DNA of 64,000 nucleotides from an uncultured Syntrophomonadaceae bacterium (GCA_964467475.1 CAYXQO010000005.1:8894-72893), one strand, 5' to 3'; positions 3,454 through 58,806 are shown, numbered from the stretch's first letter. Translations and numbers: made by a program. Notes: generated from the letters alone by a model not told the origin.

Positions 3454-3482
3454 GGAAGCAGAGGGACGGAGGCATTGCTTCC
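3454..3482. repeat. REP-like hairpin (family 2: GGAAGCA-gagGGACGGaggcat-TGCTTCC), directly 3' of secA
   Basis: 7-bp perfect stem around a loop containing GGGACGG. A partial second copy is at 3529-3550 and a full copy at 45807-45835. Confidence 0.6.
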
Positions 3483-14094: not shown

Positions 14095-14097
14095 CGT

Positions 14098-14125
14098 GCC
14101 AGGGGGACGGGGTTGTTGACACATT
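14098..14125 (+). repeat. REP element (family 1: GCCAGGGGGACGGGGTTGTTGACACA) in uvrB-uvrA spacer
   Basis: Near-identical copies at 31799, 31915 and (inverted) 32788, flanking the RAYT gene. Confidence 0.7.
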
Positions 14126-31790: not shown

Positions 31791-31798
31791 AAATCCGT

Positions 31799-31826
31799 GC
31801 CAAGGGGACGGGGTTGTTGACACATT
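31799..31826 (+). repeat. REP element family 1 copy, immediately 3' of tmRNA
   Basis: GCCAAGGGGACGGGGTTGTTGACACATT, 27/28 identical to the 14098 copy. Confidence 0.7.
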
Positions 31827-31905: not shown

Positions 31906-31914
31906 GCGTAAAGT

Positions 31915-31942
31915 GCCAGGGGGACGGGGTTGTTGACACATT
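31915..31942 (+). repeat. REP element family 1 copy (carries TTGACA -35-like hexamer)
   Basis: GCCAGGGGGACGGGGTTGTTGACACATT. A diverged copy, GTCAGCGGGACGGGGATATTGACAAT, lies at 31966-31990 and is followed by TATAAC about 17 bp downstream. Confidence 0.7.
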
Positions 31943-32780: not shown

Positions 32781-32826
32781 ACTGATTTGTGTCAACAACC
32801 CCGTCCCCCTGGCACTTGTAATTGTA

Positions 32827-32855
32827 TTGCTTAAAGGGGTGCTATTTGCTATAAT
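32827..32855 (+). promoter_or_regulatory. Sigma-A-like promoter of tRNA-Ala (TTGCTT -17- TATAAT)
   Basis: -35 at 32827-32832 and -10 TATAAT at 32850-32855, with the tRNA starting 11 nt downstream. Confidence 0.5.
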
Positions 32856-39032: not shown

Positions 39033-39060
39033 GAAACGCAGGGACGGTTCCCTGTTTCAC
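39033..39060. repeat. REP-like palindrome family 3 copy (GAAACGCAGGGACGGTTCCCTGTTTCAC)
   Basis: Imperfect palindrome. Copies at 40601-40630, 40734-40762 and 40821-40850. Confidence 0.65.
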
Positions 39061-39123
39061 CCACCGACGCTGAACCAGGCTGCAACCCCCGGTAATAGCA
39101 AGCTTACTTGAGGAGGGGCTTTT

Positions 39124-40632
39124 TTGTCCAAGAAAATTTTGATTATCGGGGCCGGCATGGCCGGACTCTCAGCGGGAGTGCATGCTTTAAGGAACGGTTA
39201 CGAGGCTGAAATCTTTGAAATGCATCATTTGCCTGGCGGCCTCTGCACGGCCTGGCAAAGAAACGGTTACACCTTTGACGGTTGTATCCACTGGCTCGTC
39301 GGCACTAAGCCGGGCAGTCAGTTTAACCGGCTCTGGCGCGAAGTAGGTGCCCTTAAAGATATCGAAGTTGTCGATCACGACATTTTCATGAGCATTGAAG
39401 CAGGCGAGGGCAAAACGCTCCACATCTACAGTGACTTAGAACGCCTCAGGGAACACCTCCTGGAGCATTCACCTGAAGATAAACCGGTGATCGATAAGAT
39501 GATTAACGGTGCTAAAGCGCTTTCAGGAGTGAGTTTCCCCCTGGAGAAACCAGAGGAAATCTCGAAAATCTGGGATATGCCGGCAATGCTTGTTAAAATG
39601 TTGCCGCTGTTCGGTGTCTTCGGTAAATTTTCCCGGATTTCCATTGCCGGTTACCTCAAACAGTTAAAAAATCCCTTTCTCAAGGAAGCTTTAGCCCAGG
39701 TTATGCCCATAGGCTATTCGATGCTTTCCTTGCTAAGCACCCTTGCCTCCCAGCATGACCGTGACGCCGGTTTCCCGCAGGGCGGTTCGCTGGCCTTCGC
39801 CCGCTCAATCGAAAAGCGCTTTCTCGAGCTTGGCGGTAAAATAAACTATCGCTCCCGGGTTACGCGCATCTTAATCGAAAATAACAGGGCTACCGGGGTC
39901 CTCCTTGAAGACGGAAGCGATATAAAAGGCGACCTGGTTATTTCAGCAGCCGATCTAAGAACTACCGCTTATGAACTACTGCGCAAAAAATACCTTACCC
40001 CGAAAATAAAAAAAAGCTTTTCCCATTTTCCCGTATATTCTTCGGTGCAAATTTCCCTCGGTATCGCTGCCGACCTCTCCGGTGAAGCAGAAAAGCTGGC
40101 GGTTAAGCTAAACGACCCTCCTGATTTGGGCCTGGGCAAGCATGAATACCTCTACCTGACCAACTATTCTTTCGATCCCACCCTGGCCCCACCGGGCAAA
40201 ACCATGGTTTCAGCCACCTTGCTCTCATCTTATGATTACTGGGAACCCCTGGCTGCAGATAAAGACAACTACCGGGCAGAGAAAGAAAAACTGGCTGAAT
40301 TGGCCAAAAATGCAGTAGAAAAACGCTTCCCCTCCGCCGCAGGAAAAATTGAAAAAGTAGATGTAGCCACCCCGCTTACCTACCATCGCTATACGGGGGT
40401 ATGGAAAGGTGCTTACATGGCCTGGATAGTGCCCCCGGACGAAGGACGCTTCAAGCTTCCCAAACAACTACCCGGCCTGGAAGGTTTCTACCAGGTAGGG
40501 CAGTGGATTGAACCTCCGGCAGGACTACCCGGGTCGATGCTCACCGGGCGCCACGTGATCCAGATTATATGCGATCGCGACAAGAAACCTTTTCGCGTCG
40601 GTGAAATGCAGGGACGGTTCCCTGTTTCATAA
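39124..40632 (+). CDS. FAD-dependent oxidoreductase, phytoene-desaturase (CrtI)-like family
   Basis: 502 aa. N-terminal Rossmann ILIIGAGMAGLSAG and GLCTAWQRNGYTFDGCIHW. The last 9 codons are encoded by a REP palindrome. Confidence 0.82.
   Translation: MSKKILIIGAGMAGLSAGVHALRNGYEAEIFEMHHLPGGLCTAWQRNGYTFDGCIHWLVGTKPGSQFNRLWREVGALKDIEVVDHDIFMSIEAGEGKTLHIYSDLERLREHLLEHSPEDKPVIDKMINGAKALSGVSFPLEKPEEISKIWDMPAMLVKMLPLFGVFGKFSRISIAGYLKQLKNPFLKEALAQVMPIGYSMLSLLSTLASQHDRDAGFPQGGSLAFARSIEKRFLELGGKINYRSRVTRILIENNRATGVLLEDGSDIKGDLVISAADLRTTAYELLRKKYLTPKIKKSFSHFPVYSSVQISLGIAADLSGEAEKLAVKLNDPPDLGLGKHEYLYLTNYSFDPTLAPPGKTMVSATLLSSYDYWEPLAADKDNYRAEKEKLAELAKNAVEKRFPSAAGKIEKVDVATPLTYHRYTGVWKGAYMAWIVPPDEGRFKLPKQLPGLEGFYQVGQWIEPPAGLPGSMLTGRHVIQIICDRDKKPFRVGEMQGRFPVS
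40601..40630. repeat. REP-like palindrome family 3 copy overlapping the stop codon of the oxidoreductase gene
   Basis: GTGAAATGCAGGGACGGTTCCCTGTTTCAT. Confidence 0.65.
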
Positions 40633-40733: not shown

Positions 40734-40850
40734 GTGAAACGCGGAACCGTCCCCTGTTTCATCCCCTGTTTCATTTACGATCGTGACAAAAAACCTTTTC
40801 GCGTGGAAGAGTAGACTTGGGTGAAACGCGGAACCGTCCCCGCGTTTCAC
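40734..40850. repeat. Two further family-3 palindromes (40734-40762; perfect 30-nt palindrome 40821-40850) bracketing a 30-bp direct duplicate of the oxidoreductase 3' end (40777-40806)
   Basis: GTGAAACGCGGAACCGTCCCCGCGTTTCAC is a perfect palindrome. ACGATCGTGACAAAAAACCTTTTCGCGTGG repeats GCGATCGCGACAAGAAACCTTTTCGCGTCGG (40571-40600). Confidence 0.6.
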
Positions 40851-43800: not shown

Positions 43801-45795
43801 TTGAAGGCTATCGATGAAACTGCCGTTAACACGATTCGTTTCCTGGCCGTTGACGCTGTCGAAAAAGCAAAATCCGGGCATCCCGGTTTGCCCATGGGCG
43901 CCGCGGCTGCCGCTTATACCCTCTGGACAAGGTTCCTCAAGCATTGCCCCGCAGATCCGAACTGGCCCGACCGTGACCGTTTCGTTCTTTCTGCCGGGCA
44001 CGGCTCGATGCTGCTTTATGCCCTGCTGCACCTCTTCGGCTACGAGCTTTCCTTAGAGGAAATTAAAAATTTCCGCCAGTGGGGCAGCCGCACCCCCGGC
44101 CACCCGGAGTTCGGGCACACCCCCGGCGTGGAAACCACCACCGGGCCGCTGGGCCAGGGCTTTGCCAATGCCGTAGGGATGGCTATCGCCGAAAAACGCC
44201 TGGCCGCGGAATTCAACCGCCCCGGTTACCCCCTGGTTGACCACTACACCTACACCCTTGCCGGAGACGGCTGCATGATGGAAGGGGTCGTTTCCGAGGC
44301 GGCCTCGCTCGCCGGCCACTACCGCCTGGGCAAACTGATCTGCCTTTACGACGACAACGAAATTACCATCGATGGCAGCACGGAAATAACTTTTACCGAA
44401 GATGTGGGCAAACGTTTTGAAGCTTACGGCTGGCAGGTCTTAGCCGTAGAAGACGGCAACCAGATCGAGCAGGTTGAAGAGGCGATCACAGAAGCGAAAA
44501 AGGACTCAACGCGCCCCACCCTGATTATGATCCGCACCCGGATCGGCCACGGTTCCCCGGAAAAAGAAGGCACCGCCGGGGTGCACGGCGCCCCCCTGGG
44601 CGAAGAAGAGGTGGCCGCGACCAAAAAAAACCTTAGCTGGCCGCTCGAGCCCGCCTTTTACGTGCCCGGAGAAGTGTACGATCATTTTGCCGCCTGCAGG
44701 AAATCCTGCGAGGAACAAAAGCAAAAATGGGACGCGCTTTATGCAAAATACCGCGAAGAATACCCCCAGGAGGCCGCGAAATGGGACAGCTGGTTTTCCG
44801 GGCAAGTCCCCCCTGAAATCCAAAGTGACCCCCGGCTAAAGGATTTTGGCGAAGATGCCGATGCCACCCGCTCCAGTTCAGGCAAAGTAATGCAGGTTTT
44901 AACCGAATACCTGCCCAACTTATTCGGCGGCTCTGCCGACCTTGCTGCTTCCACCAAGACTACCTTGAAAGATAAAGCGGAATTCCAGCCCGGCAACCCC
45001 GCCGGTAACAATATTCACTTCGGCGTCCGCGAGCATGCCATGGGCGCTATAACTTCAGGGATCATGCTGCACGGGGGCCTGCGCCCCTATGCTTCCACTT
45101 TCCTGGTCTTTTTCGATTACATGAAACCGGCGGTCAGGCTGGCGGCAATGATGGGTCTGCCCGTGGTCTATATTTATACCCACGATAGTGTCGCCGTCGG
45201 CGAAGACGGCCCCACCCACCAGCCGGTGGAACAGCTGGCCCACCTGCGTTCCATTCCAAATATGCACGTCCTGCGCCCGGCCGACGGTAAAGAAACCGCC
45301 GCCTGCTGGTGCCATGCCCTGGAGCGCCGCTGCGGCCCCACCGCCCTGGTTTGTTCCCGCCAAAAACTGCCCCAGCTTGCAGGCACCGGGGAAGAAGCCC
45401 GCAAGGGGGGCTATGTCATCAGCGAAAGCCGGGACAAAGAGCCCGATTTAATCCTGATCGCCACTGGCTCCGAGGTGAGCCTGGCCCTTCAAGCAAAAGA
45501 AACCTTGGAAAAGAAAGGATCCAGTGTCCGGGTAGTCAGCATGGTCAGCCGGGAACTTTTCCTGGCCCAGGAAGAGGCTTACCGGGAGCAGGTCCTTCCT
45601 GCCGCGGTAACGCGCAGGCTGATCATCGAAGCCGCCCACCCCTCAGGCTGGGAAAGCTTTGCCGGGCCGGATGGAGCGGTGCTCGGCATCGAGAGTTTCG
45701 GCGCCTCTGCGCCGGGACCGGCAGTGATGGAAAAATACGGCTTCAATCTTGAAGCGGTGGTCGAAAAAGCAGAAGAGCTGCTTGCTTCAACGTAA
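43801..45795 (+). CDS. tkt: Transketolase
   Basis: 664 aa, TPP-binding GHPG...GDGCMMEG and [14 protein letters not shown] motifs. TTG start. Confidence 0.95.
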
Positions 45796-45806
45796 ATAAG
45801 GAAACA

Positions 45807-45835
45807 GGAAGCAGAGGGACGGGGGTAGTGCTTCC
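45807..45835. repeat. REP-like hairpin family 2 copy directly 3' of tkt
   Basis: GGAAGCA-GAGGGACGGGGGTAG-TGCTTCC. Nearly identical to 3454-3482. Confidence 0.6.
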
Positions 45836-45890
45836 TTTGAATTGAAATAGACCACCTGAGCCCGGAGATAACAGATGGGAGGAACTATAT

Positions 45891-46625
45891 ATGGTCGATC
45901 AAAAAAGACCCGGCGGTGAACTGGCCAGTCGCCCGCTGCACTTTATCTGGCTCTGCGATTGTTCCGGTTCGATGGGAGTGGACGGAAAAATCCAGTCCCT
46001 GAACAATGCAATCAGGGAAGCGATCCCGGAAATGCGGGAAACAGCCTCAGAAAATCCCAATGCCCGGGTGCTGATGCGGGCGATCAAGTTTTCCAGCGGA
46101 GCCCAGTGGCATATCTCCCAGCCCACCCCGGTGGAGGAATTCAAGTGGGAAGATTTAAGCGCCGGCGGGGTCACCGACATGGGCAAAGCCTTTAAGCTCC
46201 TTGCCGAGCAATTAAAAATACCGCCCATGGAAGAACGCGCCCTGCCTCCGGTGCTGGTGCTTGTCTCCGACGGCCAGCCCTCCGACGATTACGGCAGCGG
46301 CCTGCTGCGCTTGGAAGAGCTCCCCTGGGGGCAGAAAGCAGTTCGCCTGGCCATAGCGATCGGCGAGGATGCTGATCACGAGGTGCTGGAGAAGTTCATG
46401 GGCCGCTATGCCGCGGAAGTGGGCCCTCTGCAGGCAAACAACCCCGGGGAATTGAAAAACTTCGTGCGCTGGGTCTCCACTGAAGTGGTCAAGTCGGCTT
46501 CATCGCCCCCGAGTGAAGGCTTCGAAGAGGCGGGCGACAAAGAGCGCCTGACCGGCAATGTCCCGATTCCCCTGCCCCCGGGCACTGAAGAAGAGGGTCC
46601 CGGTAGCCCGGATGATGTCTGGTAG
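45891..46625 (+). CDS. von Willebrand factor A (TerY-like) protein
   Basis: MIDAS DCSGSM and LVSDGQPSD. 244 aa. First gene of the vWA-PP2C-kinase cluster. Confidence 0.85.
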   Translation: MVDQKRPGGELASRPLHFIWLCDCSGSMGVDGKIQSLNNAIREAIPEMRETASENPNARVLMRAIKFSSGAQWHISQPTPVEEFKWEDLSAGGVTDMGKAFKLLAEQLKIPPMEERALPPVLVLVSDGQPSDDYGSGLLRLEELPWGQKAVRLAIAIGEDADHEVLEKFMGRYAAEVGPLQANNPGELKNFVRWVSTEVVKSASSPPSEGFEEAGDKERLTGNVPIPLPPGTEEEGPGSPDDVW

Positions 46626-46636
46626 GGAGCGGCCGG

Positions 46637-47551
46637 ATGAGAAAAGCACTGCAGCGTAACCCGGGCAAGCACAAACCGGTCTGGCGCGTCCTGGGAGAAA
46701 GCGCTCGCGGCGCCGCCCATGCCCGGTGCGGCCGGGCGAACCAGGATGCGATCAGCTGGCGTCCCCTCAAGAACGGGGCACGGTATGCAGCCCTGGCCGT
46801 AGCAGACGGTCACGGCGGCGCCCGGTACTTCCGCAGCAGGACAGGTGCGCACTTAGCCGCAGAAAATGCCGTCCGGGTATTAGAGGAATTCAGGCGGGCG
46901 CACCGCTTTACGGCCCCCCTTTCGGTGGTCAAGAACGTGGCCGAGGAAAAACTGCCCTTTTTACTGTACCGCCGGTGGCAGGAAGCGGTGGAGGAACATT
47001 TTAAAAATAATCCGCTCAGCGAAGCCGAACGCGAACAGCTGCCTGCAAACGCTTCAACGGCAAAAGCGGCGGAGGAGAGCCCGCACCTCTGCTACGGGAC
47101 CACCCTGCTGGCCCTGCTTTTAACCCCGCGCTACGCCGTGGTCCTGCAGCTCGGCGACGGCGATATTCTCACCGTCTCCGAAAAAGGCGAGGTAATGCGG
47201 CCGCTTCCTGCGGACCCGGCCCTTTTTGCCGAAGAAACCAGCTCGCTCGGCATGCCGCAAGCCTGGCGGGAATTTCGCGTCTGCTTCCAGGCCTTTACCG
47301 GAAAATATCCCGCCCTGTTCATGGTTTCCACCGACGGTTATGCCAACTCATTTCAGGGCGACCGCGAGTTTTTAAAGGTAGGCCCCGATCTTTTCAATCT
47401 TCTTAATACCTGCGGTCCCGGCGAGGTCAGCGCCAACCTTTATAAATGGCTTGAAGAAGCATCCCGGCAGGGTAGCGGCGACGACGTGACCCTGGGGCTG
47501 ATCTACCGGGTTACGGCAGCACAGCAAAATAGGCTTTGGCGGAGGTTATGA
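46637..47551 (+). CDS. PP2C-family Ser/Thr protein phosphatase
   Basis: ADGHGG motif, GTTLL...GDGDI. 304 aa. Confidence 0.85.
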   Translation: MRKALQRNPGKHKPVWRVLGESARGAAHARCGRANQDAISWRPLKNGARYAALAVADGHGGARYFRSRTGAHLAAENAVRVLEEFRRAHRFTAPLSVVKNVAEEKLPFLLYRRWQEAVEEHFKNNPLSEAEREQLPANASTAKAAEESPHLCYGTTLLALLLTPRYAVVLQLGDGDILTVSEKGEVMRPLPADPALFAEETSSLGMPQAWREFRVCFQAFTGKYPALFMVSTDGYANSFQGDREFLKVGPDLFNLLNTCGPGEVSANLYKWLEEASRQGSGDDVTLGLIYRVTAAQQNRLWRRL

Positions 47552-47913
47552 AAATGGAAAATATGCCGAATGTAAAAGTAGTAATGGCCCGCTGCAGTGG
47601 TAATAATAAAAGTTTTGGCATTCGCCTGGAGGAAGTCACTGCCGGCAACTGGCTGGCCGACTGGGCTTTTGATATCAAGGATCAGCAGGCCCGCAAGGAA
47701 GGCTACCATGAAAACGTGGTCGCCGGCGAGTTCGACTTTGCCACAAACTACCCGGGCTGCCCCCACTGCGGCCGTGATTCCCTGGTGCGCTGTATTTGCG
47801 AAACCGTTTTCTGCTGGGACGGAGACCACCGCAAGGTAAAATGCCCCGCCTGCGGCAGAAAGGGCCGCATCGGCACCGCGATCAGCAGGCTTAAAACAGA
47901 CATTGACCGCTAA
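47536..47913 (+). CDS. Small Cys-rich zinc-ribbon protein (possible TerY-C-like metal-binding partner)
   Basis: 125 aa with CPHCG...CIC...C...CPACG Cys clusters. Overlaps the PP2C stop and precedes the kinase. Confidence 0.55.
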   Translation: MAEVMKMENMPNVKVVMARCSGNNKSFGIRLEEVTAGNWLADWAFDIKDQQARKEGYHENVVAGEFDFATNYPGCPHCGRDSLVRCICETVFCWDGDHRKVKCPACGRKGRIGTAISRLKTDIDR

Positions 47914-47940
47914 ATCTGCGGAGGTGAAGGCGTTAACCCC

Positions 47941-49323
47941 ATGAACCAGATCCTTGAAATCGGCCAGGAGGTCATCTCCAAAAACACGGGCAAAGTGATC
48001 GCGGTAGAGCAGTTCCTGGGCGGCGGCGGCCAGGGCGAGGTTTACCGGGTCAGCCTGCAGGGCAGGCCTTTAGCCCTGAAATGGTACTTCCCGGAGGCGA
48101 TCACCCCTGCTTACCGTAAAAACTTAGAACGCCTGATCGACAAAGGTCCGCCCAACCGCAACTTCCTCTGGCCGATGGAAATTGTCTTCGACGAGAATTT
48201 AAAATCCTTCGGTTACCTGATGCCGCTCCGGGACGAGCGTTACAAGGGCATCGTCGATTTAATGAAAAGGCGGATCGACCCTTCTTTCCGGGCCCTCGCC
48301 CTGGCCGGCTTCAACCTGGCCCACAGCTTCCTGCAGTTGCACTCCAAGGGGATGTGCTACAGCGACATTTCCTTCGGCAACGTTTTCATGCACCCCGAAA
48401 GCGGCGATATCTTGATCTGCGACAACGACAACTGCATTTTCGACGGGGAAAAAGCAGGCATCAAGGGCACACCGCGCTTCATGGCGCCCGAAGTGGTCTT
48501 GGGGGGCAACCCCAATACCCAGTCCGACCTTTTTTCCCTGGCCGTCCTGCTTTTTTACATGTTTTTCCTGCACCACCCCCTGGAAGGCCGCCGGGAGGCG
48601 GAAATCAAGTGCTTCGACCTGCCGGCGATGAAAAAACTCTACGGCGCAGAGCCCCTTTTTATCTTCGACCCTGCAAATGATGCCAACCGCCCCGTGCCCG
48701 GCCTGCACGACAATGCCCTGATTTACTGGCCGCTTTATCCCAACTTTTTACGCGGGCTGTTCACGCGGGCCTTTACCACCGGGATCAGCGACCCGCAAAA
48801 CGGGCGCGTCCGCGAAACCGAGTGGCGCGCGGCGATGCTGCGCCTGCGCGACTGCATTATCTACTGCCCGGCCTGCGGTGCGGAGAATTTCTGCGATCCC
48901 GGGCAAGGGGGCGAAGAGGATTACGCAAGCGCAGACCCCGGCGCCCAGCCCGGCCGGGACTCAGGCGGCACAGAAGCCGGCCGCTCCCAGGCAGGAGTAA
49001 GTTGCTGGTCCTGCCGGCGGGAGGTGCCCCTGCCCCCGCGACTTAAACTACCCTCCAGGCCGGTGATGCTAAACTACGATACCAAACTTTACCCGCACCA
49101 TATCGATCAAAGCGCCGGTTTTGATTTTAATCATCCCCTGGCCGAGGTTAACCGGCACCCCGAAAAGCCCCAAATCTGGGGGCTGAAAAACACCGGTTCA
49201 GAAAAATGGGTTTGCACCACCGTAGACGGTGCGGTGAAAGACGTCCCTCCCGGGAAAAGCATCACCCTGGCGGTGGGAACTAAGATTAATTTCGGCAAAA
49301 GCGAGGGGTTAATAGAAAAATAA
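47941..49323 (+). CDS. Atypical (non-RD) Ser/Thr protein-kinase-like protein with Zn-ribbon and C-terminal FHA-like domain
   Basis: Glycine loop GGGGQGEVY, the LALK lysine and GTPRFMAPE. The catalytic loop reads YSDISFGN instead of HRDxxxxN. Also CPACG...CWSC and a C-terminal G..N.GS..W....G......G..I.L..G.KINFG FHA-like pattern. Confidence 0.78.
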   Translation: MNQILEIGQEVISKNTGKVIAVEQFLGGGGQGEVYRVSLQGRPLALKWYFPEAITPAYRKNLERLIDKGPPNRNFLWPMEIVFDENLKSFGYLMPLRDERYKGIVDLMKRRIDPSFRALALAGFNLAHSFLQLHSKGMCYSDISFGNVFMHPESGDILICDNDNCIFDGEKAGIKGTPRFMAPEVVLGGNPNTQSDLFSLAVLLFYMFFLHHPLEGRREAEIKCFDLPAMKKLYGAEPLFIFDPANDANRPVPGLHDNALIYWPLYPNFLRGLFTRAFTTGISDPQNGRVRETEWRAAMLRLRDCIIYCPACGAENFCDPGQGGEEDYASADPGAQPGRDSGGTEAGRSQAGVSCWSCRREVPLPPRLKLPSRPVMLNYDTKLYPHHIDQSAGFDFNHPLAEVNRHPEKPQIWGLKNTGSEKWVCTTVDGAVKDVPPGKSITLAVGTKINFGKSEGLIEK

Positions 49324-49326
49324 CGG

Positions 49327-49405
49327 AATGCCCAGGGGACGGTTCGAGCGTCCCGAAGCACAGCGAAGGCCGAAGGGAAGACGATGGAACCGTCCCCCTG
49401 GCATT
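49327..49405. repeat. Long hairpin (19-bp stem AATGCCCAGGGGACGGTTC / GAACCGTCCCCCTGGCATT, 41-nt loop) right after the kinase stop
   Basis: The arms are reverse complements with one indel. It shares the GGGACGGTTC core with the family-3 REPs. Confidence 0.6.
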
Positions 49406-49455
49406 ACGCTACCCCCCTGACACAGGCATAGACCTACCCAAACGGAGGAACGGCA

Positions 49456-52182
49456 GTGAACAACCAGGTAGCGCGCGTGCTAAAAAATTTAATCGAAGAA
49501 TACGGCAGTACTTTAGGCAGTGATGCTCGGCGTTGCCGGGCGCTTTTGAATGACTACTGCGGTCAATATAAACGGGAAGTCAACGCCCTGCTGCTTGCCC
49601 TCCAGCAGGGTGTGCCCGCAGCCCTGCTTGCTTCCCCGGAAACACCACCTGAGATCATCGAAAACCGCCTTACCGCTAAACTGGCTGAAGAACTGGGCTT
49701 GCGCGTAGAGATTTCCCGCTGGGCAGTGCAAACCTGGGCTTTTGCCCTGGGGATGAGGTCCGTAGAACCGGCAGGTTCGCTCCTTAAAAAAGAGAATCAA
49801 GAGCCCAAACCTAAAAAACCGGCAGGAAAAAAGCAAGGCCCTGCACCACGGCAGGGCTTAAGCGCACCCGCTAAAGAAGAGCTCCCCGGCAAGCCACCAG
49901 AAAAACTTAGCCTGCGCGGCCACCGCGAAGCGGTGCTCGCAGCGGCCTTTTCACCTGATGGCAAGCTGCTTGCGACCGGCAGCAGGGACTATACCGCTAC
50001 CGTATGGGACACCGCAACGGGCGAAGAATTATTGGTCCTGCGCGGCCACAACGGTTACGTGGAAGCGGTGGCCTTTTCCCCAGACGGCAAGTTTCTTGCC
50101 ACCGGCAGCGGCGATTATACCGTCCGCCTCTGGGAAGTGGCTTCCGGTGAAGAGAAAGCCACCATGCGCGGCCATAAAGCCTGGGTTTTCGCAGTGGCCT
50201 TTTTCCCGGACGGCAAGCTGCTTGCCTCGGGCAGCTGGAATAAGACGGTGCGCATCTGGGATACAACCTTTCAAAAGAAGCTGCAGATCCTGCGCGGCCA
50301 CGAGGCGTGGGTGCTTTCAGTAGACGTTTCCCCCGACGGGAAACTGCTTGCCTCCGGCAGTCGTGACGGCACTGTCCGTCTCTATGAAACCCCCGGCGGC
50401 AAAAACCTGGCCGTGCTGCGCGGCCACAAAGATTGGGTTAACGCGGTCGCTTTTTCGCCCTGCGGGAAGCTCCTCGCCTCGGGCGGCAATGATCACAACA
50501 TCAGGCTCTGGGATACCGCGTCAGGGGAAGAACTGGCCGTAATGCAGGGCCACAGCAAGCCCGTGCAAACAATAAGCTTTGCACCCGACGGACGCCTGCT
50601 TGCCTCGGGCAGCCGTGACGAAACCCTGCGCCTCTGGGACCCGGCTTCTGCGGGCGAACTGGCGGTTATCAGCGGGCATGAAGGCTTCGTGGGCGCGGTG
50701 GCCTTCGCCCCCGCAGGCGGTTTTCTCGCCTCAGGCGGGGCAGATGGCAAGATCCGTCTCTGGGATGCCGGAAAATGGCTTGAACGTCTGGCTGAAATTT
50801 ACGAGGCCACTCCCTCCCTGCACCTCCGCCACCAGCATACCGGCCGCCGGGAAACGGCAAAAGAAGACTCTGCTTTAAACGACCAAGCAGCAGATCAGGA
50901 AACTGCCGCACCGGAAGAGCAGGCCGGAAAGAAAAAGAAACAGGAAAGCGGCGGTGAAGCAGCTCCTGCGGAAGGTAAACCGGGCAAAGAAACACTTGAA
51001 ACTGTTGCTGAAGAAAACTCAAGGCCACAGGAGAAAGCTGAGGGTTCTAAAGCGCAGGAAAAGCAAAAGCAGAAAGCCCCGCCCGACGACAGACCCGCCG
51101 GCTCAACCGGTGCTGCGCAAGCGGATCAGCATACCACCCTGCCCCCATCTAAGCGCCCGGCCCCCGGGAAAACACCCTCCACCCGCTACCAGGTGCCTTA
51201 CGAGCTGGCAGTGCTGCAGGGCCACAGCGGCTGGGTCTGGAGCCTCGCCTTTTCCCCGAATGGCAAGTCTCTTGCCTCGGGCAGCCGGGACAAGAGCGTG
51301 TGCCTCTGGGACCTTACCCCTGCAGACGACGCTTCGCTTTCCGGGCAGTTCTGGCCCGGCAGCTTTAACGGTAAGCGCAAAGTCCTGCGCGGCCACCGCA
51401 AGACCGTCTTTTCAGTTTCCTTTTCCCCTGACGGCAGGCTGCTTGCTTCAGGCAGCGGCGATAAGACGATCCGCCTCTGGAACACTTTCTCAGGCAAAGA
51501 GCTCGCCGTCCTAAGGGGCCATGACTATACCGCCGGTGAAGTTCTCACAGTAGCCTTTTCCCCCGGCGGCAGGCTGCTTGCCTCGGGCAGCCTCGATAAA
51601 ACCGTGCGCCTCTGGAACGTGGCAGCGCTAAGAGATAAATCAATCCTACGCCGCCTGTGGCAGGTATTTTCCGGTAAAAAAGCACCTGTCCTGCGCGGCC
51701 ATCGCAACCCGGTGCTCGCGGTTGCCTTTTCCCCGAGCGGCCGCCTCTTAGCTTCCGCCAGCTCTGATGAAACCGTACGCCTGTGGGATGTAGCCACCGG
51801 CGACGAGCTTGCCGTTTTTTCCGGCCATGAAGACTGGGTCAACGCCGTATCTTTTTCCCCCGACGGCAAGTCTCTTGCCTCTGCCGGCTACGATAAAACC
51901 GTGCGCCTGTGGAACCTTTCCACCCGCAAAGAGAGCCTGATCATGCGCGGCCACACCAACGTGGTCCACTCGGTTGCCTTCTCCCCCGGCGGAGACCACC
52001 TCGCCTCCGGCAGCCTGGACCGCACCGTCAGAATCTGGGACGTGGCCACCGGGGAAGAACGGGCGCTACTAAAAGGCCACCAGGACTACGTGGTCCCGGT
52101 AGCCTATTCACCGGATGGCAGGGTGCTCGCCTCGGGCAGCTATGACCGCACCGTGCGCCTCTGGCGCCTGCTCTCCTTTTAA
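49456..52182 (+). CDS. Giant WD40-repeat protein: about 150-aa N-terminal domain, two 7-bladed propellers separated by a K/E/P/A-rich linker
   Basis: At least 14 repeats of the LRGH...V..VAFSPDG..LASGS.D.T.RLWD type. 908 aa. Confidence 0.9.
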   Translation: MNNQVARVLKNLIEEYGSTLGSDARRCRALLNDYCGQYKREVNALLLALQQGVPAALLASPETPPEIIENRLTAKLAEELGLRVEISRWAVQTWAFALGMRSVEPAGSLLKKENQEPKPKKPAGKKQGPAPRQGLSAPAKEELPGKPPEKLSLRGHREAVLAAAFSPDGKLLATGSRDYTATVWDTATGEELLVLRGHNGYVEAVAFSPDGKFLATGSGDYTVRLWEVASGEEKATMRGHKAWVFAVAFFPDGKLLASGSWNKTVRIWDTTFQKKLQILRGHEAWVLSVDVSPDGKLLASGSRDGTVRLYETPGGKNLAVLRGHKDWVNAVAFSPCGKLLASGGNDHNIRLWDTASGEELAVMQGHSKPVQTISFAPDGRLLASGSRDETLRLWDPASAGELAVISGHEGFVGAVAFAPAGGFLASGGADGKIRLWDAGKWLERLAEIYEATPSLHLRHQHTGRRETAKEDSALNDQAADQETAAPEEQAGKKKKQESGGEAAPAEGKPGKETLETVAEENSRPQEKAEGSKAQEKQKQKAPPDDRPAGSTGAAQADQHTTLPPSKRPAPGKTPSTRYQVPYELAVLQGHSGWVWSLAFSPNGKSLASGSRDKSVCLWDLTPADDASLSGQFWPGSFNGKRKVLRGHRKTVFSVSFSPDGRLLASGSGDKTIRLWNTFSGKELAVLRGHDYTAGEVLTVAFSPGGRLLASGSLDKTVRLWNVAALRDKSILRRLWQVFSGKKAPVLRGHRNPVLAVAFSPSGRLLASASSDETVRLWDVATGDELAVFSGHEDWVNAVSFSPDGKSLASAGYDKTVRLWNLSTRKESLIMRGHTNVVHSVAFSPGGDHLASGSLDRTVRIWDVATGEERALLKGHQDYVVPVAYSPDGRVLASGSYDRTVRLWRLLSF

Positions 52183-52694
52183 AAGGAGCGATTGATTAAC
52201 CCGCCCCCGTAAAAAATTAAGCGTAAAATGGCAGGAAAAACCTTGCCCCGCCTTGTATAATTAAGGTACGGGTATTTTTCGGGTATTTTTGTGAAAGAGG
52301 TGTGACAGAAGGGACGAGGCAAATAAGGCACATGCCAGAAGGCAGATCACAGAAGAAACATTATAGAAGGAATGGAGCAATTTAGTCACAGATTAAGTAA
52401 ATTTGCTTGTAACGACCATAACGGTCATTAAAGCAAAGGTTGTAACCGGCCCTGTCTGCATGGGGACAGGCCGCCGAAAGCCAGGTGGGATGGCTTGATC
52501 GTGCGTAAGCGCCAGCGATGGCAGAAAAAAAGACGACTGGCCGAATAACACAAAAAAAAGGGTTGCGAATGTCAAAAAGCGCTGGTGGTGGCCGAGGGGG
52601 AAGACGAGGATGGAACCACCCCTGCTGGTGCCCCACTGGTTTTTAATACGTAAAAGACATTCAAAGAAAGACTGCCCTGGTAAGGAGGAATAGT

Positions 52695-53651
52695 TTGCGC
52701 AATAAACGGAAAAAAAAGAGACTTTCCCCGCTAATTACTTTTCTGGTGCTGCTTCTTTTTGCCGGGGCGATCACCGCCTTTTATTACCCTGAGATGGCCG
52801 GGGAAGTTCGCGAATTTTTCTCTATAGATCTCGCCTCAATGCCTGCCGAACCGGAACAGGAGGCTGAAGAGGGGCCTGCGGAAAAAACAGAAGAAACAGA
52901 AGGTGCCCCTTCGGAGCAGGAACCGGTTGAAGATCCTTTTGCCGAAAAAAAAGAGGATCAGGCGGAGCCTGCGGAAGAAACAGAAGAAGAAACAGCCCCG
53001 GAGGAACCGGCAGAAGAAGAACCGGCAGCAGAAGCTCCCGCTGACCCCGGCGAGGAGAAAGAAGACTATCAGGTGATCTCAGACGGCGATTACTTGCAGG
53101 CCCTGGTGACCAAGGAAACCACCTTAAAAAGCGATTATGTGCCGGCTAATTTAAAACCGCTCCCCGATTACTTAAAAACCTCTGGCGAGATGTATTTACG
53201 GGCGGAAGCCCTGGAGCATTTAAGGAAAATGGCTGATGCGGCCGCCGAAGACGGGGTTACCTTACAGGTGGCTTCCGCCTACCGCAGCTACGATACCCAG
53301 AAATATATTTTCGAAGACTATGCCAGCAGGCACGGCGAAAAAGAAGCGAACCGTTTCAGCGCGAGGCCGGGGCAGTCAGAGCACCAGCTGGGCACCACTG
53401 TCGACTTCGGGGGGACCGCAAAAGATTTCAGCGCTGCATTTGCCGAAACTGACCAGGGCCGCTGGCTGAAAGAAAACGCCTACCGGTACGGCTTTGTGAT
53501 GAGCTACCCCGAAGGCAAGGAGCACATCACCGGCTACATTTATGAGCCCTGGCATTACCGCTATATCGGGGTTGATGAAGCGATGCGCTGGAAAGAGTCC
53601 GGCCTGACTCTAAACGAGTACCTCGAGCAGCAGGAGCAGTTTTTTGAGTAA
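52695..53651 (+). CDS. M15-family D-alanyl-D-alanine carboxypeptidase (VanY-like) with acidic EETEE-repeat N-terminal region
   Basis: TM anchor. SAYRSYDTQ...SEHQLGTTVDF...YEPWHYRY motifs of the M15B/VanY fold. Confidence 0.85.
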   Translation: MRNKRKKKRLSPLITFLVLLLFAGAITAFYYPEMAGEVREFFSIDLASMPAEPEQEAEEGPAEKTEETEGAPSEQEPVEDPFAEKKEDQAEPAEETEEETAPEEPAEEEPAAEAPADPGEEKEDYQVISDGDYLQALVTKETTLKSDYVPANLKPLPDYLKTSGEMYLRAEALEHLRKMADAAAEDGVTLQVASAYRSYDTQKYIFEDYASRHGEKEANRFSARPGQSEHQLGTTVDFGGTAKDFSAAFAETDQGRWLKENAYRYGFVMSYPEGKEHITGYIYEPWHYRYIGVDEAMRWKESGLTLNEYLEQQEQFFE

Positions 53652-54087: not shown

Positions 54088-55272
54088 TTAACCGGTCCTG
54101 TGAAATGAAGACTGCAAGATTTTTTCCACTTCCGCTGTGTCCACCGGCCGCAGGTTGTTGCCGGCCCGCTCCGGCGTAAACATGCCCTCGATTAAGCCCG
54201 ATACGTTATCTTTGGTAACCCCGTATTTAGAAAGCATTTTATTAATTCCCACCTGCTCAAAAAGGGCAGTTATTTTTTTATGCAGCTCCTCCACCGAGCG
54301 GCAGCCACAGGCCCCGGCCACTTTTTGAAAGCGCCCGTCGTCATCTTTTGCATTGTACTCAAGCAAGGCTGGCAGGGTGAAGGCGCAGGCCAGCCCGTGC
54401 GGGCAGCCTAAGGCGGCGGTAACAGGATAGGAAATCGAGTGAGCCAGGGCGGTGCGGGTAGTGCTGATGCAGATGCCGCCCATTAAGCTCGCTGTAAGCA
54501 TTTCTGAGCGGTATTCTAAGTTGCCCAGGTCTTCGATCAAAAAAGGCAGGATCGATAAGACTATATTTATCGCCTCCCCCGCCAGGGCCACGTTTAAGGG
54601 CCCGGCATTAACATTCCAAACCGACTCCAGGGCGTGGGAAAGCACATCCAGCCCGGTGATTACCGTGGTTTCTTCCGGCAGCGAAAGGGTTAAGCCTGCG
54701 TCCAGCAGGGCGGCCCGGGGAAATAAATCTTTTTTGGCAAGAGAATATTTTTTCTGCGCCTGCAGGTCCCAGATCGTGGCAAAATTAGTCGCCTCGCTGC
54801 CGGTGCCGGCCGTGGTAGGCACCGCCACCAGCGGAAGTAGCGGTAAATCCGGCAGTTTTTGGGCACCCCTGAAATGCTCTTTTAACGAAAAAGCATCTGC
54901 CCCTGAGTTAAGCAGCAGGCTCAGCGCTTTAGCCGTATCGATCGCACTGCCCCCGCCGGCGCCTATTAAAAAGTTAAAGCCCTCACTTTTATAGCGTTTT
55001 TGCCAGGCCTCAAGATCTGCAAGATCGGGGTTTGGTTTTACCTCACCCATCACCTCTACCGGCAGGCCATTTTCTACCAGCGAATTTTTAAGCCTTGCAG
55101 CCTGGCCCCTTTCGACGAAACCGGGTGAGGTGACCAGCAGGCCCTTAGGCTCTTTTTCGCTTTCTACTTTCCTTAGCTCTTCTTTAACCACAGCAGGCAA
55201 TGTTTCAATTTTCCCCGGCCCGGAGATTACTCTAACCGGGTTATAAAAAGACCACTCGTTGCTGTAAAGCAA
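54088..55272 (-). CDS. Iron-containing (group III) alcohol dehydrogenase; predicted phosphonoacetaldehyde reductase (2-hydroxyethylphosphonate-forming)
   Basis: 394 aa Fe-ADH fold (GAGGGSAIDTAKA, His-rich metal site). Last gene of the ppm-ppd operon. Confidence 0.8.
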   Translation of the reverse strand: MLYSNEWSFYNPVRVISGPGKIETLPAVVKEELRKVESEKEPKGLLVTSPGFVERGQAARLKNSLVENGLPVEVMGEVKPNPDLADLEAWQKRYKSEGFNFLIGAGGGSAIDTAKALSLLLNSGADAFSLKEHFRGAQKLPDLPLLPLVAVPTTAGTGSEATNFATIWDLQAQKKYSLAKKDLFPRAALLDAGLTLSLPEETTVITGLDVLSHALESVWNVNAGPLNVALAGEAINIVLSILPFLIEDLGNLEYRSEMLTASLMGGICISTTRTALAHSISYPVTAALGCPHGLACAFTLPALLEYNAKDDDGRFQKVAGACGCRSVEELHKKITALFEQVGINKMLSKYGVTKDNVSGLIEGMFTPERAGNNLRPVDTAEVEKILQSSFHRTG

Positions 55273-55390
55273 AGTTTTAAACCGCTCCTTTGTGCTTATG
55301 CTTGTGTTCTATGCTAAGGTTTACCCGCCTTATCTTTAAAACAAACCGGGCAAACTCTGAGTGTAACCATGCAAACCCGGTACTTCTTTT

Positions 55391-56131
55391 TTATGTTTCA
55401 GAGTGGAGGTAGCGCTTCACCTTTGCCAGGTCTTCTTCATCGTCGATCTCGGTGCAGAATTCATTTCGCAGCGGCACCGGGTGGAGGACAAGCTCGTTTA
55501 ATATATTGTTCAGGGCGTCTTCAGCGTAAACCTTCAGGCGCCCTTCTTTTTCGAAGTTTTTCATTTGATCGACCCAGGCGGCGAAGCTTTTTCTTGTCAG
55601 CTTGTAAAAGGGGATTAAAAAGACGCAGGCCTCACCGAAAACCTCCACCCCGATTTTTTTGACCCTGCCGCCTTTGATTTCTGCCTTGAAATCTTTTTCC
55701 GGAAGGCTTACCTGCGGGTTGGTTAAAACGGCATCGCTGAAAGGGGTTTTTAGCAGTTTTTCTGAGACCGCCCGGTCATAAACCAAATCGCCGTGTAAAA
55801 GGATCAGCTGATCACCTGCCCCCAAAGCGCCTAAAATGTTATCAGCTGCCAGCAACAAAGAATAGATGTAGTTGGTTTCCTCGTAGCGGGGGTTGTGGAC
55901 AAAGCTGAAATTAACTTTTTCGAAATGCCTTTTCAGGTAGGCTTCAAGCATCTCAGAGAAAGGCCCGGTGGTGATGAGGATCTTGTCGATCCCTGCTTCC
56001 TGCAGGCTTTTTACCTGCCGGCTTATAATGGTTTCAGTACCGGTGATTTCAACTAAGCATTTCGGCTGCGTTTTAGTCAGCTCGCCCATGCGGGAACCGG
56101 TGCCTGAATTTAAGATTACCGCCATCTTCAT
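55391..56131 (-). CDS. LicC/MobA-like NTP-transferase (predicted phosphonate or phosphocholine cytidylyltransferase)
   Basis: MKMAVILNSGTGSRMG...KCLVEI nucleotidyltransferase N-terminus. 246 aa. Confidence 0.78.
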   Translation of the reverse strand: MKMAVILNSGTGSRMGELTKTQPKCLVEITGTETIISRQVKSLQEAGIDKILITTGPFSEMLEAYLKRHFEKVNFSFVHNPRYEETNYIYSLLLAADNILGALGAGDQLILLHGDLVYDRAVSEKLLKTPFSDAVLTNPQVSLPEKDFKAEIKGGRVKKIGVEVFGEACVFLIPFYKLTRKSFAAWVDQMKNFEKEGRLKVYAEDALNNILNELVLHPVPLRNEFCTEIDDEEDLAKVKRYLHSET

Positions 56132-57379
56132 TTAAGCTGATCCTTTCTGTAAAAACTGCATAAATTGCCGTTTGTTTTCCTGCGGGGTGCTCTTGGGACG
56201 TCCCAGCTCTTTTCTTGCCCCCGGGCGCACCCGGATCTCTAAAAAGACCGGCCCCTGGTTTGCTTTGACCTTCTCTAAGGCCGCGTCCAGCTGTTCTTTT
56301 GTTTCTGCCCGGAAGCTTTTGTTGTAGCCGCAGGCTTTAGCAATTTTCACTAAATCGATATTGCCTGCCACCGTGGGCTGCCCGCCTACCGACTCATGGG
56401 CTCCGTTGTTAAAGACAAGGTGTTTGTAGTTGGCTGCCCCGCTGGTGCCGCTGGTAGCAAGCGCTCCCATGTGCATAAGCACCGCCCCGTCGCCGTCAAA
56501 GCAGTAGATCTCCCGCCCGGGCAGGTTTAAGGCGACGCTTAAGGCGATTTGCGAGGCATGCCCCATGGAACCGACATTTAAAAAATCCTTCTCGTGGCTT
56601 TCTTCGCTTCTTTCCCGGTACTCGTAAATCTCCCGGGAAAGTTTACCGGTGGTAGAAATAACCGCCGCCCCCGGTTGCAGGCTTTCAAGCGCTATAATTG
56701 CCGCTTCTTCCCTGGTCAGGGGGCACTGTTCAAAAGAGCCTCTAAAACCTGCCTGCCCGGCCGGTTCCCCCGGGTCTTCACCTGCAACAGCGCCTCCTTT
56801 GAAGCCGGCTAAACTTGTTCTTGATGCATTTTCATTTTCTGCCTCGTAGGGGCCAAAAATATCCTTGCCTGCTACCAGGGCGTAGGGTTCGTTTAATGCC
56901 CGGATGTGCTCGGTCGCCTTGACCAGCTCCTCGTAAGCGTCTTCTTCCGTGCCCGGCAAAATAGAGTATTGCAGCCCCAGCGCTTGCAAAAGCGGTAAGG
57001 TTACCAGGCCCTGCTTTAAATGCTGCGGCTCATCCTCCAGGCCAGGCTCGCCCCGCCAGCCGATCAGTAAAAGCAGCGGCATGTTGTAAACCATGGGGTC
57101 GGTTAAGGATACCAGCGGGTTAATTGCGTTGCCCAGGCCGGAATTTTGCATGTAGACCAGCCCCGGCCTGCCGGTGGCCAGGTAATGTCCCGCCGCCAGT
57201 GCCACCGCTCCACCTTCGTTGGCCGCGGTGATATGACGCCCGGCGCCGCTTTGATCGGCAATGCAGGCGGTTATATTTTTGAGGAGAGAATCGGGCACCC
57301 CGGTGAAAAAATCAATCCCCTGCTTCAACATTGAATCATAAAAAAACTGGCAATCAACCATCAAAAAAACCCTCCCCAA
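56132..57379 (-). CDS. ppd: Phosphonopyruvate decarboxylase (TPP-dependent, fused alpha/beta)
   Basis: N-terminus ...GIDFFTGVPDSLLK... and a TPP-binding GDG...N motif characteristic of phosphono/sulfopyruvate decarboxylases. Confidence 0.88.
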   Translation of the reverse strand: MGRVFLMVDCQFFYDSMLKQGIDFFTGVPDSLLKNITACIADQSGAGRHITAANEGGAVALAAGHYLATGRPGLVYMQNSGLGNAINPLVSLTDPMVYNMPLLLLIGWRGEPGLEDEPQHLKQGLVTLPLLQALGLQYSILPGTEEDAYEELVKATEHIRALNEPYALVAGKDIFGPYEAENENASRTSLAGFKGGAVAGEDPGEPAGQAGFRGSFEQCPLTREEAAIIALESLQPGAAVISTTGKLSREIYEYRERSEESHEKDFLNVGSMGHASQIALSVALNLPGREIYCFDGDGAVLMHMGALATSGTSGAANYKHLVFNNGAHESVGGQPTVAGNIDLVKIAKACGYNKSFRAETKEQLDAALEKVKANQGPVFLEIRVRPGARKELGRPKSTPQENKRQFMQFLQKGSA

Positions 57380-57406
57380 AAGAAATATCGAGCCCCCCTC
57401 CAGAGC

Positions 57407-58708
57407 TTACTTGCCGCCGGGGATCAGGTTGAGGATATCCTTGATCGGCATGCAGCACTCTTCGCTTTCATAAGCCCGCTCGTTTTCTAAAATCTGTTCC
57501 GCCGTTTTGATCATGGCCGGGTAGGCGCTGCGCAGCAAGTGGTTGGCATAGATCACGATATCCACGCCTGCTTCCATCAGCTCGCTTTCTGTGACCTGGC
57601 AGTAGGTAGTGGGCACCGCCACCAGGGTCGCCTGCTTGTTGAATTTGCGGAAAGCGGTGCAAAAATCGAATATTTCCTGCGGGTCCTTTTCCTTGCTGTG
57701 GATCATGATCCCGTCTGCGCCTGCTTCCAGGTAAGCTTTAGCCCGCTCGAGCGCATCATCAAGCCCCGCCTTTAGAATCAGGCTTTCGATCCGGGCGATG
57801 ATCATAAAATCTTCTGTCACCTGGGCTTTTTTGCCGCGGGAGATCTTGGCGGAGAAGTGCTCGATGCTGTCCTGCTCCTGGGCTACCTCGGTGCCGAAAA
57901 GGGAGTTTTTCTTCAAGCCCACCTTGTCCTCGATGATTACCGCCGAAACCCCGAACCTTTCTAAGCTCTTGACCAGGTAGGCGAAATGTTCCATGTGCCC
58001 GCCCGTATCACCGTCCATGATGATCGGCTTGGTGGTCACTTCCAAAATATCGTTGATCGTGTTCAGGCGCGAGCTGTTGTCCACCAGCTCGATGTCGGGC
58101 TTGCCCTTCACCGTGGAGTCGCACAAACTGCTCACCCACATCCCGTCGAACTGCTTGACCACATCACCCTGGCTGATACGCAGTTTTTCCACGATCAACC
58201 CGGTCAGGCCGTTGTGGGCTTCCATGAAGCGCAAAAGCGGCTTAACTTCCAGCAGACGCCGCAGGCGGTTGATCCTGATCTGCGGGGTGGTGCCGATTTC
58301 CTGCAGGGTTTGATCGAGCATACTCACAGAGACACCCTTGGTGTACTCCACTTCCACCAGCTCGCCGCCCCACTCCTTCAGGGTCTCGATCACTTTCTCG
58401 CGGATTTCTTTTTGAATCCCCGTTTTCCAGTCGTCCCCGTGCACCACGTAATCGGGCTTTAATTTTACCAGGTTGGGCACGTAATCTAACGTATCCTGCG
58501 GGATCACCCTGCTGACCCCTTTTAAGTTCTCCACGATTTGCTTGCGGTGTTCGAACTCGATCACCGGGTAGCGCTTGTAGGTGGCGATCACTTCATCGGT
58601 TAAAATGCCCACCGTCACTTCGCCAAGTTTCCTTGCCTCGTTGATCACGTTTATATGCCCGTGGTGGATAATATCGGCGCTCATGGCCAGGTATACTTGT
58701 TTCATCAC
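57407..58708 (-). CDS. ppm: Bifunctional cytidylyltransferase-like (HxGH) domain fused to phosphoenolpyruvate phosphomutase
   Basis: N-terminal SADIIHHGH class-I nucleotidyltransferase motif. C-terminal PEP mutase core MEAHNGL...DGDTGG...IEDKVGLKKNS...AGADGIMIHS. Confidence 0.88.
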   Translation of the reverse strand: MMKQVYLAMSADIIHHGHINVINEARKLGEVTVGILTDEVIATYKRYPVIEFEHRKQIVENLKGVSRVIPQDTLDYVPNLVKLKPDYVVHGDDWKTGIQKEIREKVIETLKEWGGELVEVEYTKGVSVSMLDQTLQEIGTTPQIRINRLRRLLEVKPLLRFMEAHNGLTGLIVEKLRISQGDVVKQFDGMWVSSLCDSTVKGKPDIELVDNSSRLNTINDILEVTTKPIIMDGDTGGHMEHFAYLVKSLERFGVSAVIIEDKVGLKKNSLFGTEVAQEQDSIEHFSAKISRGKKAQVTEDFMIIARIESLILKAGLDDALERAKAYLEAGADGIMIHSKEKDPQEIFDFCTAFRKFNKQATLVAVPTTYCQVTESELMEAGVDIVIYANHLLRSAYPAMIKTAEQILENERAYESEECCMPIKDILNLIPGGK

Positions 58709-58806
58709 CTAAAAATTACTCCCTTTCCTTTATGAGAATGTAACCTGCTTATTCTTGATATATTCTCGAAAGAAAGTAAAAAACCCTTGTTTTAAAAGCA
58801 AAGGTT

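Follow-up and report, generated by a model that had tools for sequence, protein, structure and literature searches.

A cluster of five co-directional genes occupies positions 45891-52182 of a 64,000-nucleotide stretch of DNA, referred to here as the window, from an uncultured Syntrophomonadaceae bacterium (GCA_964467475.1, CAYXQO010000005.1:8894-72893). The genes encode a von Willebrand factor A (vWA) protein, a PP2C phosphatase, a small TerY-C zinc-binding protein, a Hanks-type kinase carrying a zinc ribbon and a C-terminal beta-rich domain, and a 908-aa protein (49456-52182) in which a helical N-terminal domain (NTD) precedes two WD40 propellers (Table 1). The original prediction, made from the sequence alone, had likened the vWA, phosphatase and kinase genes to the TerY-P phospho-signalling triad and had treated the remaining parts as additions to it. 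The TerY-P triad was reportedly defined by comparative genomics by Anantharaman, Iyer and Aravind in 2012.

All five genes were recovered as open reading frames (ORFs) at the predicted positions, and independent gene callers made the same five calls on three soda-lake sediment contigs bearing an identical kinase, in agreement with the description of five co-directional genes that are tightly spaced or overlap. The nearest genomes are Syntrophomonadaceae metagenome-assembled genomes (MAGs). The intergenic gaps measure 11 nt (vWA/PP2C), 2 nt (PP2C/TerY-C, turning into an overlap with a TTG start) and 27 nt (TerY-C/kinase), and the 132 nt between the kinase and WD40 genes are an outlier among these otherwise tight spacings. 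The cluster lies, as had been indicated, between tkt upstream and a cell-wall peptidase gene downstream, the latter being of the VanY type.

Table 1. Coordinates of the cluster genes, their domains and associated elements (window positions unless a locus number is given)
Feature	Coordinates	Strand	Basis
TerY-like vWA protein, 244 aa	45891..46625	+	PF00092, complete MIDAS
PP2C-family Ser/Thr phosphatase, 304 aa	46637..47551	+	PF13672 PP2C_2, E 6.8e-35
Solo TerY-C zinc-binding protein, 119 aa	47554..47913	+	PF15616 TerY_C, ATG at 47554
Kinase catalytic domain, residues 1-304, Hanks-type, TerY-P clade	47941..48852	+	PF00069, E 1e-12
Kinase zinc ribbon, residues 305-360, with low-complexity insert 324-349	48853..49020	+	invariant cysteines
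Kinase C-terminal beta-rich domain, residues 361-460	49021..49323	+	AF2 model, invariant residues
NTD, ~105-aa seven-helix N-terminal domain	49456..49770	+	AF2 model, HMM searches
First seven-bladed WD40 propeller	49903..50775	+	Pfam WD40 and propeller families
K/E/P/A-rich low-complexity linker between propellers	50776..51204	+	translation, no Pfam match
Second seven-bladed WD40 propeller and stop codon	51205..52182	+	Pfam WD40
REP-like hairpin after tkt stop codon, outside the operon proper	45800..45836	+	family D11
REP-like long hairpin between kinase and WD40 genes	49321..49411	+	inverted repeat I7
Extragenic REP-like hairpins of the window	3447-3483, 3514-3550, 14092-14125, 31793-31826, 31909-31942, 32788-32828, 39033-39063, 40601-40629, 40818-40848, 45800-45836, 49321-49411		
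Loci with non-kinase beta-module proteins	L020 4679-8001; L021 4255-9623; L022 2633-8001; L025 4679-10053		

The core proteins

The vWA protein matches PF00092 with an E value of 6e-5 and 23.7 bits, marginally under the gathering cut-off of 23.8 bits. The metal-ion-dependent adhesion site (MIDAS) that had been read in it is intact, its D23-x-S25-x-S27 motif being invariant across 28 homologues. The last three residues of the protein, D-V-W (residues 242-244, window 46617-46625), are equally invariant in these homologues; they follow a variable Pro/Glu-rich linker and look like a putative C-terminal docking peptide. The assignment of the second protein to the PP2C phosphatases stands (PF13672, E 7e-35). 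The third, described earlier as a Cys-rich Zn-ribbon protein, can now be named as a member of PF15616 (TerY_C; E 3.4e-8, 34.1 bits against a gathering cut-off of 28.4). An alternative TTG start at 47536 would lengthen it to 125 aa, and independent gene callers choose the 119-aa form. Its motif PGCPHCG...C.C....C.DG....CP.C is that of the vWA+TerY-C protein of ter loci, and the partners of the domain differ from place to place: it stands solo in the window and in some other loci, elsewhere it is joined to PP2C, and the ter locus has it as a vWA fusion.

The kinase ORF spans 47941-49323. Its kinase fold, its YSD...N loop and its Zn-ribbon had all been recognized before, and these are confirmed by the Pfam match (Table 1) and by the CxxC...CxxC cysteines C309, C312, C355 and C358, which are invariant among kinase homologues. 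In an alignment of 58 homologues, 57-85% identical to the window kinase, the residues G27, G29, G32, K47, D142, N147, D161, D163 and A182-P-E184 do not vary, and the window protein itself displays Y140-S-D142...N147, D161-N-D163 and APE. The ATP-binding lysine (K47) and the glycine loop (GGGGQGEV), on which the kinase assignment had been made to depend, are both present. The AlphaFold2 (AF2) model has a pLDDT (predicted local distance difference test) score of 89.3 and is confident save for the insert in the zinc ribbon, and Foldseek matches it best to ordinary Hanks kinases, CaMKII and PknB among them. The insert (residues 324-349, window 48910-48987) is Gly/Ala/Asp/Glu-rich and lies between the two zinc-ribbon knuckles; it is predicted to be disordered (pLDDT < 50) and is absent in aligned homologues outside the window lineage.

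The catalytic loop reads C-Y-R-D-I-S-F-G-N in most close homologues, and Y-S-D is limited to the window and its nearest relatives. Because most homologues read YRD, the loss of the arginine at S141 is a change local to the window lineage. A reading that makes the protein a pseudokinase, with the module acting purely as a scaffold, would be in keeping with this loss of the RD-pair arginine, with the replacement of the HRDLKxxN lysine by serine (DISFGN) and of DFG by DND, and with the variation among homologues at the alpha-C glutamate position. It is nevertheless very improbable in our judgement, given that the G-loop, K47, D142, N147, D161 and APE are invariant in the 58 homologues and that a PP2C partner stands beside the kinase in 11 of 12 genome loci. 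In the passages of PMC7159879 that deal with it, an actinobacterial kinase of the same architecture (zinc ribbon plus beta-strand-rich region), encoded beside PP2C and vWA genes, is called catalytically active (Kaur et al., 2020). Every residue of the catalytic core is kept in the window kinase, and activity is predicted for it.

The beta-rich domain that ends the kinase had been described as FHA-like. Its AF2 model contains 11 short strands at a pLDDT of ~90 and would be compatible with an FHA fold, and N378, H387, W413, G414, N417 and W423 are invariant in it among kinase homologues. The sequence searches, however, are uniformly negative and lend the FHA label no support: Pfam reports no FHA domain at E <= 10 in residues 361-460 of the window kinase or in 21 family members, nor any in the ter-locus kinase and five divergent homologues; a profile of the same segment, run against PDB sequences, gave no match; and its alignment to a small FHA alignment by hhalign reached a probability of 2%. 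Conservation of R367 and H387 does not extend to the copies of this beta module that belong to proteins other than kinases. Such copies were found in loci L020-L025, where the module also terminates non-kinase proteins, for example one that combines an FHA domain, a PrsW intramembrane protease and the beta module.

Gene neighbourhoods and relation to ter loci

A set of 12 genome loci was collected with the kinase as seed. The vWA and PP2C genes adjoin one another beside the kinase gene in 11 of the 12, in the order vWA-PP2C-(TerY-C)-kinase or kinase-vWA-PP2C. It had been allowed at the outset that the genes might never be co-conserved, and the opposite was seen. An iterated hidden Markov model (HMM) search detected the NTD in nine of the 12 loci, three of which (L006-L008) also have a WD40 gene that shares the N-terminus of the window protein.

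A metagenome scan seeded with a tight NTD alignment as query yielded 79 loci, among which 23 are at least 8 kb long; gene calling in this set is crude and the contigs are truncated. A gene of the triad is found in 22 of the 23 longer loci, and all three are found in 11. The usual order is vWA - PP2C - (TerY-C) - NTD protein - kinase, with median gaps of -4 nt from PP2C to NTD, -4 nt from TerY-C to NTD and 68 nt from NTD to kinase. The NTD genes lie within the operons themselves, and overlaps between stop and start codons are frequent there. On two long contigs whose annotation was precomputed (L098 and L099) the order is vWA - PP2C - NTD-LRR or NTD-beta-helix - kinase. Synteny is stable among related MAGs, and the clade extends over Chloroflexi, Firmicutes, Delta- and Gammaproteobacteria and many metagenomes. 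A viral origin was rejected, a single related locus having been found in 2.9 million viral contigs.

The vWA protein, compared with plasmids by tblastn, has matches on over 2,000 plasmids of enterobacteria, with ~28% identity and E 1e-9, and the matched vWA genes lie between terW and a TerD-family gene on IncHI2 plasmids. One of these, pIMP26 (L097), reads terW - vWA - TerD family - vWA - vWA+TerY-C - PP2C - kinase. The kinases of the window and of the ter locus align over 367 residues at 25% identity (E 8e-22), and the latter shows CHSDLSYKN, IIDVDG, GTPDFIAPE and a cysteine-rich segment at positions matching the window kinase; the PP2C proteins share weak pairwise similarity (E 2e-4). The likeness to TerY-P noted in the original prediction may, on the strength of the vWA and kinase alignments, the TerY-C motif and the linkage in 11 of the 12 genome loci, be taken as homology. 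To judge by their sequences, the vWA, PP2C, TerY-C and kinase-zinc ribbon proteins of the window are co-conserved homologues of the classical ter-locus TerY-P set.

The triad of ter loci has in common with the cluster a MIDAS vWA protein, a PP2C protein and a kinase with a zinc ribbon and a further C-terminal region, and TerY-C is present as well. The kinases of both share an xSD-[IL]-S-x-x-N loop, a D-x-D loop and a long extension of the C-lobe, and the C-terminal region of the ter-locus kinase is similar by eye to the beta module, although an HMM of that module does not detect it. Unlike ter-locus TerY-P, the cluster has no ter genes nearby, a solo TerY-C, a single vWA gene and a fifth, NTD-bearing gene with no counterpart among the ter proteins tested. 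A classical Ter system, conferring tellurite or metal-stress resistance, would explain why the vWA, TerY-C, PP2C and kinase proteins have homologues in the ter locus. We regard it as highly improbable here: TerD, TerZ, TerC, TerW and the associated biosynthetic genes are absent within 10 kb on either side of the cluster, L098 and L099, relatives for which annotation is available, show no such genes either, and none of the ter-locus proteins tested matches the NTD.

The claim that the TerY-P description leaves the Zn-ribbon and the non-canonical catalytic residues of the kinase unexplained does not survive these comparisons. The ter-locus kinase has a similar loop (CHSDLSYKN/IIDVDG against CYSDISFGN/ICDNDN in the window), TerY-C is a defined TerY-associated domain, and a kinase-borne zinc ribbon already belongs to the published definition of TerY-P (PMC11090510). 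Because the ter-locus kinase, the TerY-C motif and the published definition share them, the unusual catalytic loop and both zinc modules are characters of the family and not anomalies.

Two further systems invite comparison. The actinobacterial theme found beside GAP1-N2 GTPase systems, as presented in the relevant passages of PMC7159879, shares its kinase architecture and both partner genes with the cluster; the cluster, however, has no DO-GTPase or GAP1 genes nearby, the taxa differ, and those passages do not mention the NTD partner family. The EAD/GAAD adaptor domains described in parts of the same source are small helical domains that a core component has in common with variable partners; the NTD is small, helical and joined to variable partners, and was not found on any of the core proteins checked. 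In Deinococcus, push-pull phospho-regulation has been shown experimentally for DRA0331-DRA0334, which encode a vWA protein, a Ser/Thr protein kinase, an FHA protein and a PP2C protein (bioRxiv 10.64898/2026.01.23.701218). The likeness of this operon to the cluster is one of gene content, namely a vWA protein, a Ser/Thr kinase, a PP2C protein and a protein with a docking domain, the last being a canonical FHA protein in Deinococcus and the NTD protein in the window.

The NTD family and the REP-like hairpins

Of the WD40 protein, only the first ~100 residues recur in other loci according to tblastn, and there they are joined to quite different proteins. The original prediction had pointed to an unknown N-terminal domain of ~150 aa; the domain proper is shorter, ~105 aa followed by linker. 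Its AF2 model consists of seven helices (pLDDT 93.7). The NTD matches nothing in Pfam at E <= 10 and no PDB sequence, and Foldseek found no significant match to the model in PDB or BFVD. The 25 most frequent Pfam families over 142 NTD homologues each match at most nine proteins, and for this reason no Pfam family can be said to cover the domain. A word-indexed protein search returned nothing, with a single sequence or with an alignment of 32 sequences as query. Searched exhaustively with HMMER, 1.84 billion representatives, in contrast, yielded 2,924 clusters (at 50% identity) at E <= 1e-3, of which 1,301 reached E <= 1e-10.

The architecture of the family was derived from the best 150 of the 2,924 representatives. 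The NTD is N-terminal in 146 of these proteins and internal or C-terminal in the other four, and 16 of the 150 have two tandem copies; at locus L015 (8776-9933), BspA-type LRRs precede the domain. The regions beyond the NTD fall into ~70 BLAST groups, mostly singletons, and WD40 makes up the largest group. Representatives of the clustered C-terminal regions were scanned with Pfam; modules known from the family are WD40, LRR, TPR, SH3_3 (bacterial SH3), Lcl_C, FGE-sulfatase, PBP and NHL modules, and further ARC6-IMS, RDD, GerE, DUF1036, DUF6709, BspA-type LRR, DEAD helicase and beta-helix modules. At least one transmembrane segment is predicted after the NTD in 73 of the 150 proteins, typically ~67 residues downstream. 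None is predicted in the WD40 protein of the window, and on that account the sensor of this genome is predicted to be cytoplasmic.

The count of 14 WD40 blades in the 908-aa protein is correct. Pfam finds 14 repeats in two groups of seven about a low-complexity linker, and 14 repeat copies are evident at the DNA level, seven at 49913-50765 with a period of 126 nt and seven at 51215-52166. The view of the WD40 protein as a scaffold added to the triad needs amendment: it does lie outside the classical set, but what is conserved in it is the N-terminal helical domain and not the WD40 part. The NTD is the system-specific element of the fifth gene, and WD40 one of many interchangeable C-terminal modules.

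Gene order hints at a possible link between the NTD and the kinase beta module. In the NTD-seeded loci, an NTD gene often comes straight after a non-kinase beta-module gene and overlaps it (13 cases, median gap -7 nt); in L020-L022 and L025 this holds for most of the non-kinase beta-module genes, and these loci are expanded operons with three or four such gene pairs. Because beta-module genes so often precede overlapping NTD genes, it is suggested that the two domains may work together.

The 132-nt gap before the WD40 gene holds a very stable hairpin of 91 nt, with arms of 32 nt that are 81% complementary (-43.4 kcal/mol, z = -4.2), and the two could be taken to mean that this gene has no relation to the others and is transcribed apart from them, as a unit of its own. 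We give that interpretation hardly any credence, and the conservation data already contradict it: the WD40 gene follows the kinase gene after only 14-42 nt in L006 and L007 and overlaps the TerY-C gene in L008, dozens of loci have NTD genes within the operon, and the hairpin is a repeated element resembling repetitive extragenic palindromes (REP) that is not followed by a T-run. Because the same gap measures 14-42 nt in L006 and L007, the hairpin is an insertion.

The hairpin belongs to a family that shares a GGGACGG-containing core and comprises several sub-families with different stems. The core CAGRGGGACGG occurs 10 times in the window against 2.85 expected, a number reached in none of 100 shuffles. 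The hairpin after tkt (-11.9 kcal/mol, z = -2.1) contains the core CAGAGGGACGG and has two further copies, at 3447 and 3514. The REP hairpins said to bracket the cluster are accordingly real and members of a repeated family, but the second of them is internal to the cluster, separating the kinase gene from the WD40 gene.

Rfam gave zero matches at E <= 1 over 45000-53500, and a scan for terminators and promoters revealed no convincing element within the cluster. Downstream, a non-coding gap of ~510 nt (52183-52694) precedes the VanY-type gene and likewise has no Rfam match at E <= 1; its 3' end (52560-52650) folds no better than shuffled sequence. A motif common to 49380-49400 and 52590-52620 was considered and is not supported. 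Just beyond, on the minus strand at 54088-58717, lies a phosphonate-type biosynthesis cluster with genes for an Fe-ADH, a nucleotidyltransferase, a thiamine pyrophosphate (TPP) enzyme that is a candidate phosphonopyruvate decarboxylase, and a fusion of phosphoenolpyruvate (PEP) mutase with a cytidylyltransferase-like domain.

A putative sensor-coupled phospho-switch

We contend that the cluster is probably an operon-like Ser/Thr phospho-switch of the TerY-P type, belonging to a widespread clade in which a fifth, obligatory and NTD-bearing partner renders the system modular and sensor-coupled. The NTD would serve as a docking adaptor, attaching a sensor or scaffold module that varies from protein to protein to a core made up of the kinase, PP2C, vWA and TerY-C proteins, and its likeliest docking site would be the zinc ribbon-beta module of the kinase. 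Binding of a ligand or partner by the variable module may then control the activity or the location of the kinase, which would phosphorylate components of the complex, with PP2C resetting them, while the vWA MIDAS and the TerY-C zinc module may hold or relay the assembled state. The module plugged in here would be a cytoplasmic double WD40 propeller.

Several observations weigh against this proposal. A kinase homologue in a Thiomargarita MAG (L012) has neither vWA nor PP2C nearby, and one NTD gene on a 120-kb contig (L085) has no triad gene within 8 kb. The numbers of NTD and beta-module genes do not stand at 1:1, no fusion of the NTD with a triad protein occurs among the best 150 representatives, and no substrate or output component was identified. 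The 132-nt gap with its strong hairpin could partly uncouple expression of the WD40 gene in this genome. The NTD partner may, moreover, already figure in the TerY-P definition of 2012.

The same architecture could also be put to use in anti-phage or other conflict defence, with the NTD proteins acting as diversifying sensors of invaders and the kinase triggering dormancy or abortive infection. Stand-alone anti-phage systems have been reported among TerY-P-like modules (Gao 2020, cited in the pertinent passage of PMC11090510), and, so far as that passage describes them, these have the set of vWA, PP2C and kinase-zinc ribbon in common with the cluster. Paralogous NTD genes within a locus are known as well, with three FGE-sulfatase copies in L010 and WD40, DUF1036 and SH3 copies in L020-L025; FGE-sulfatase, WD40, TPR and LRR belong to the sensor repertoire of conflict systems as outlined in parts of PMC7159879; and kinase identity is ~60% between Firmicutes, Chloroflexi and Proteobacteria, suggestive of horizontal spread. 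Such a role is a serious rival, though rather unlikely in our estimation. The version tested against phage is described in that passage of PMC11090510 as carrying an OB fold where the kinase of the cluster has its zinc ribbon, and none of the McrBC, CnuH and CnuE genes given there as its context is present at the cluster. PADLOC has no model matching the vWA, PP2C or TerY-C proteins, and the kinase is hit by mad6, PD-T4-6 and MkoA only, generic models that match through the kinase domain. The operon includes no nuclease, pore or other effector, the conservation of its core proteins is higher than is usual in defence systems, and its flanks are housekeeping genes with stable synteny in related MAGs. 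Housekeeping genes are the neighbours of the window cluster and of L098 and L099 alike, and because of this context a role of the phospho-switch in cellular signalling or stress is favoured over a dedicated defence island.

Fused receptor kinases of the PknB/PknD type, in which the kinase is followed by a transmembrane segment and a sensor, typically draw on a repertoire of NHL, WD40, PASTA and FGE-sulfatase sensors. Receptor-type Hanks kinases use the same sensor modules that are found in NTD proteins (NHL, WD40, TPR, FGE-sulfatase, SH3 and PBP), often after a single transmembrane segment. They fuse sensor and kinase in one chain, whereas in the window the two are separate polypeptides that are presumably joined through the NTD. 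It can be speculated, as a possibility to which we give somewhat less than even weight, that the NTD is an undescribed adaptor defining a split receptor-kinase system, in which thousands of soluble and membrane sensors would dock at the zinc ribbon-beta region of a TerY-P core.

The NTD is an abundant domain (~2,900 clusters at 50% identity) without a Pfam model, and its proteins combine this constant domain with a sensor-like variable end. What the TerY-P triad senses, and how, is a long-standing question, for which the NTD family offers a candidate input layer; if the split receptor-kinase reading is true, it would give the triad an input layer that can be identified.

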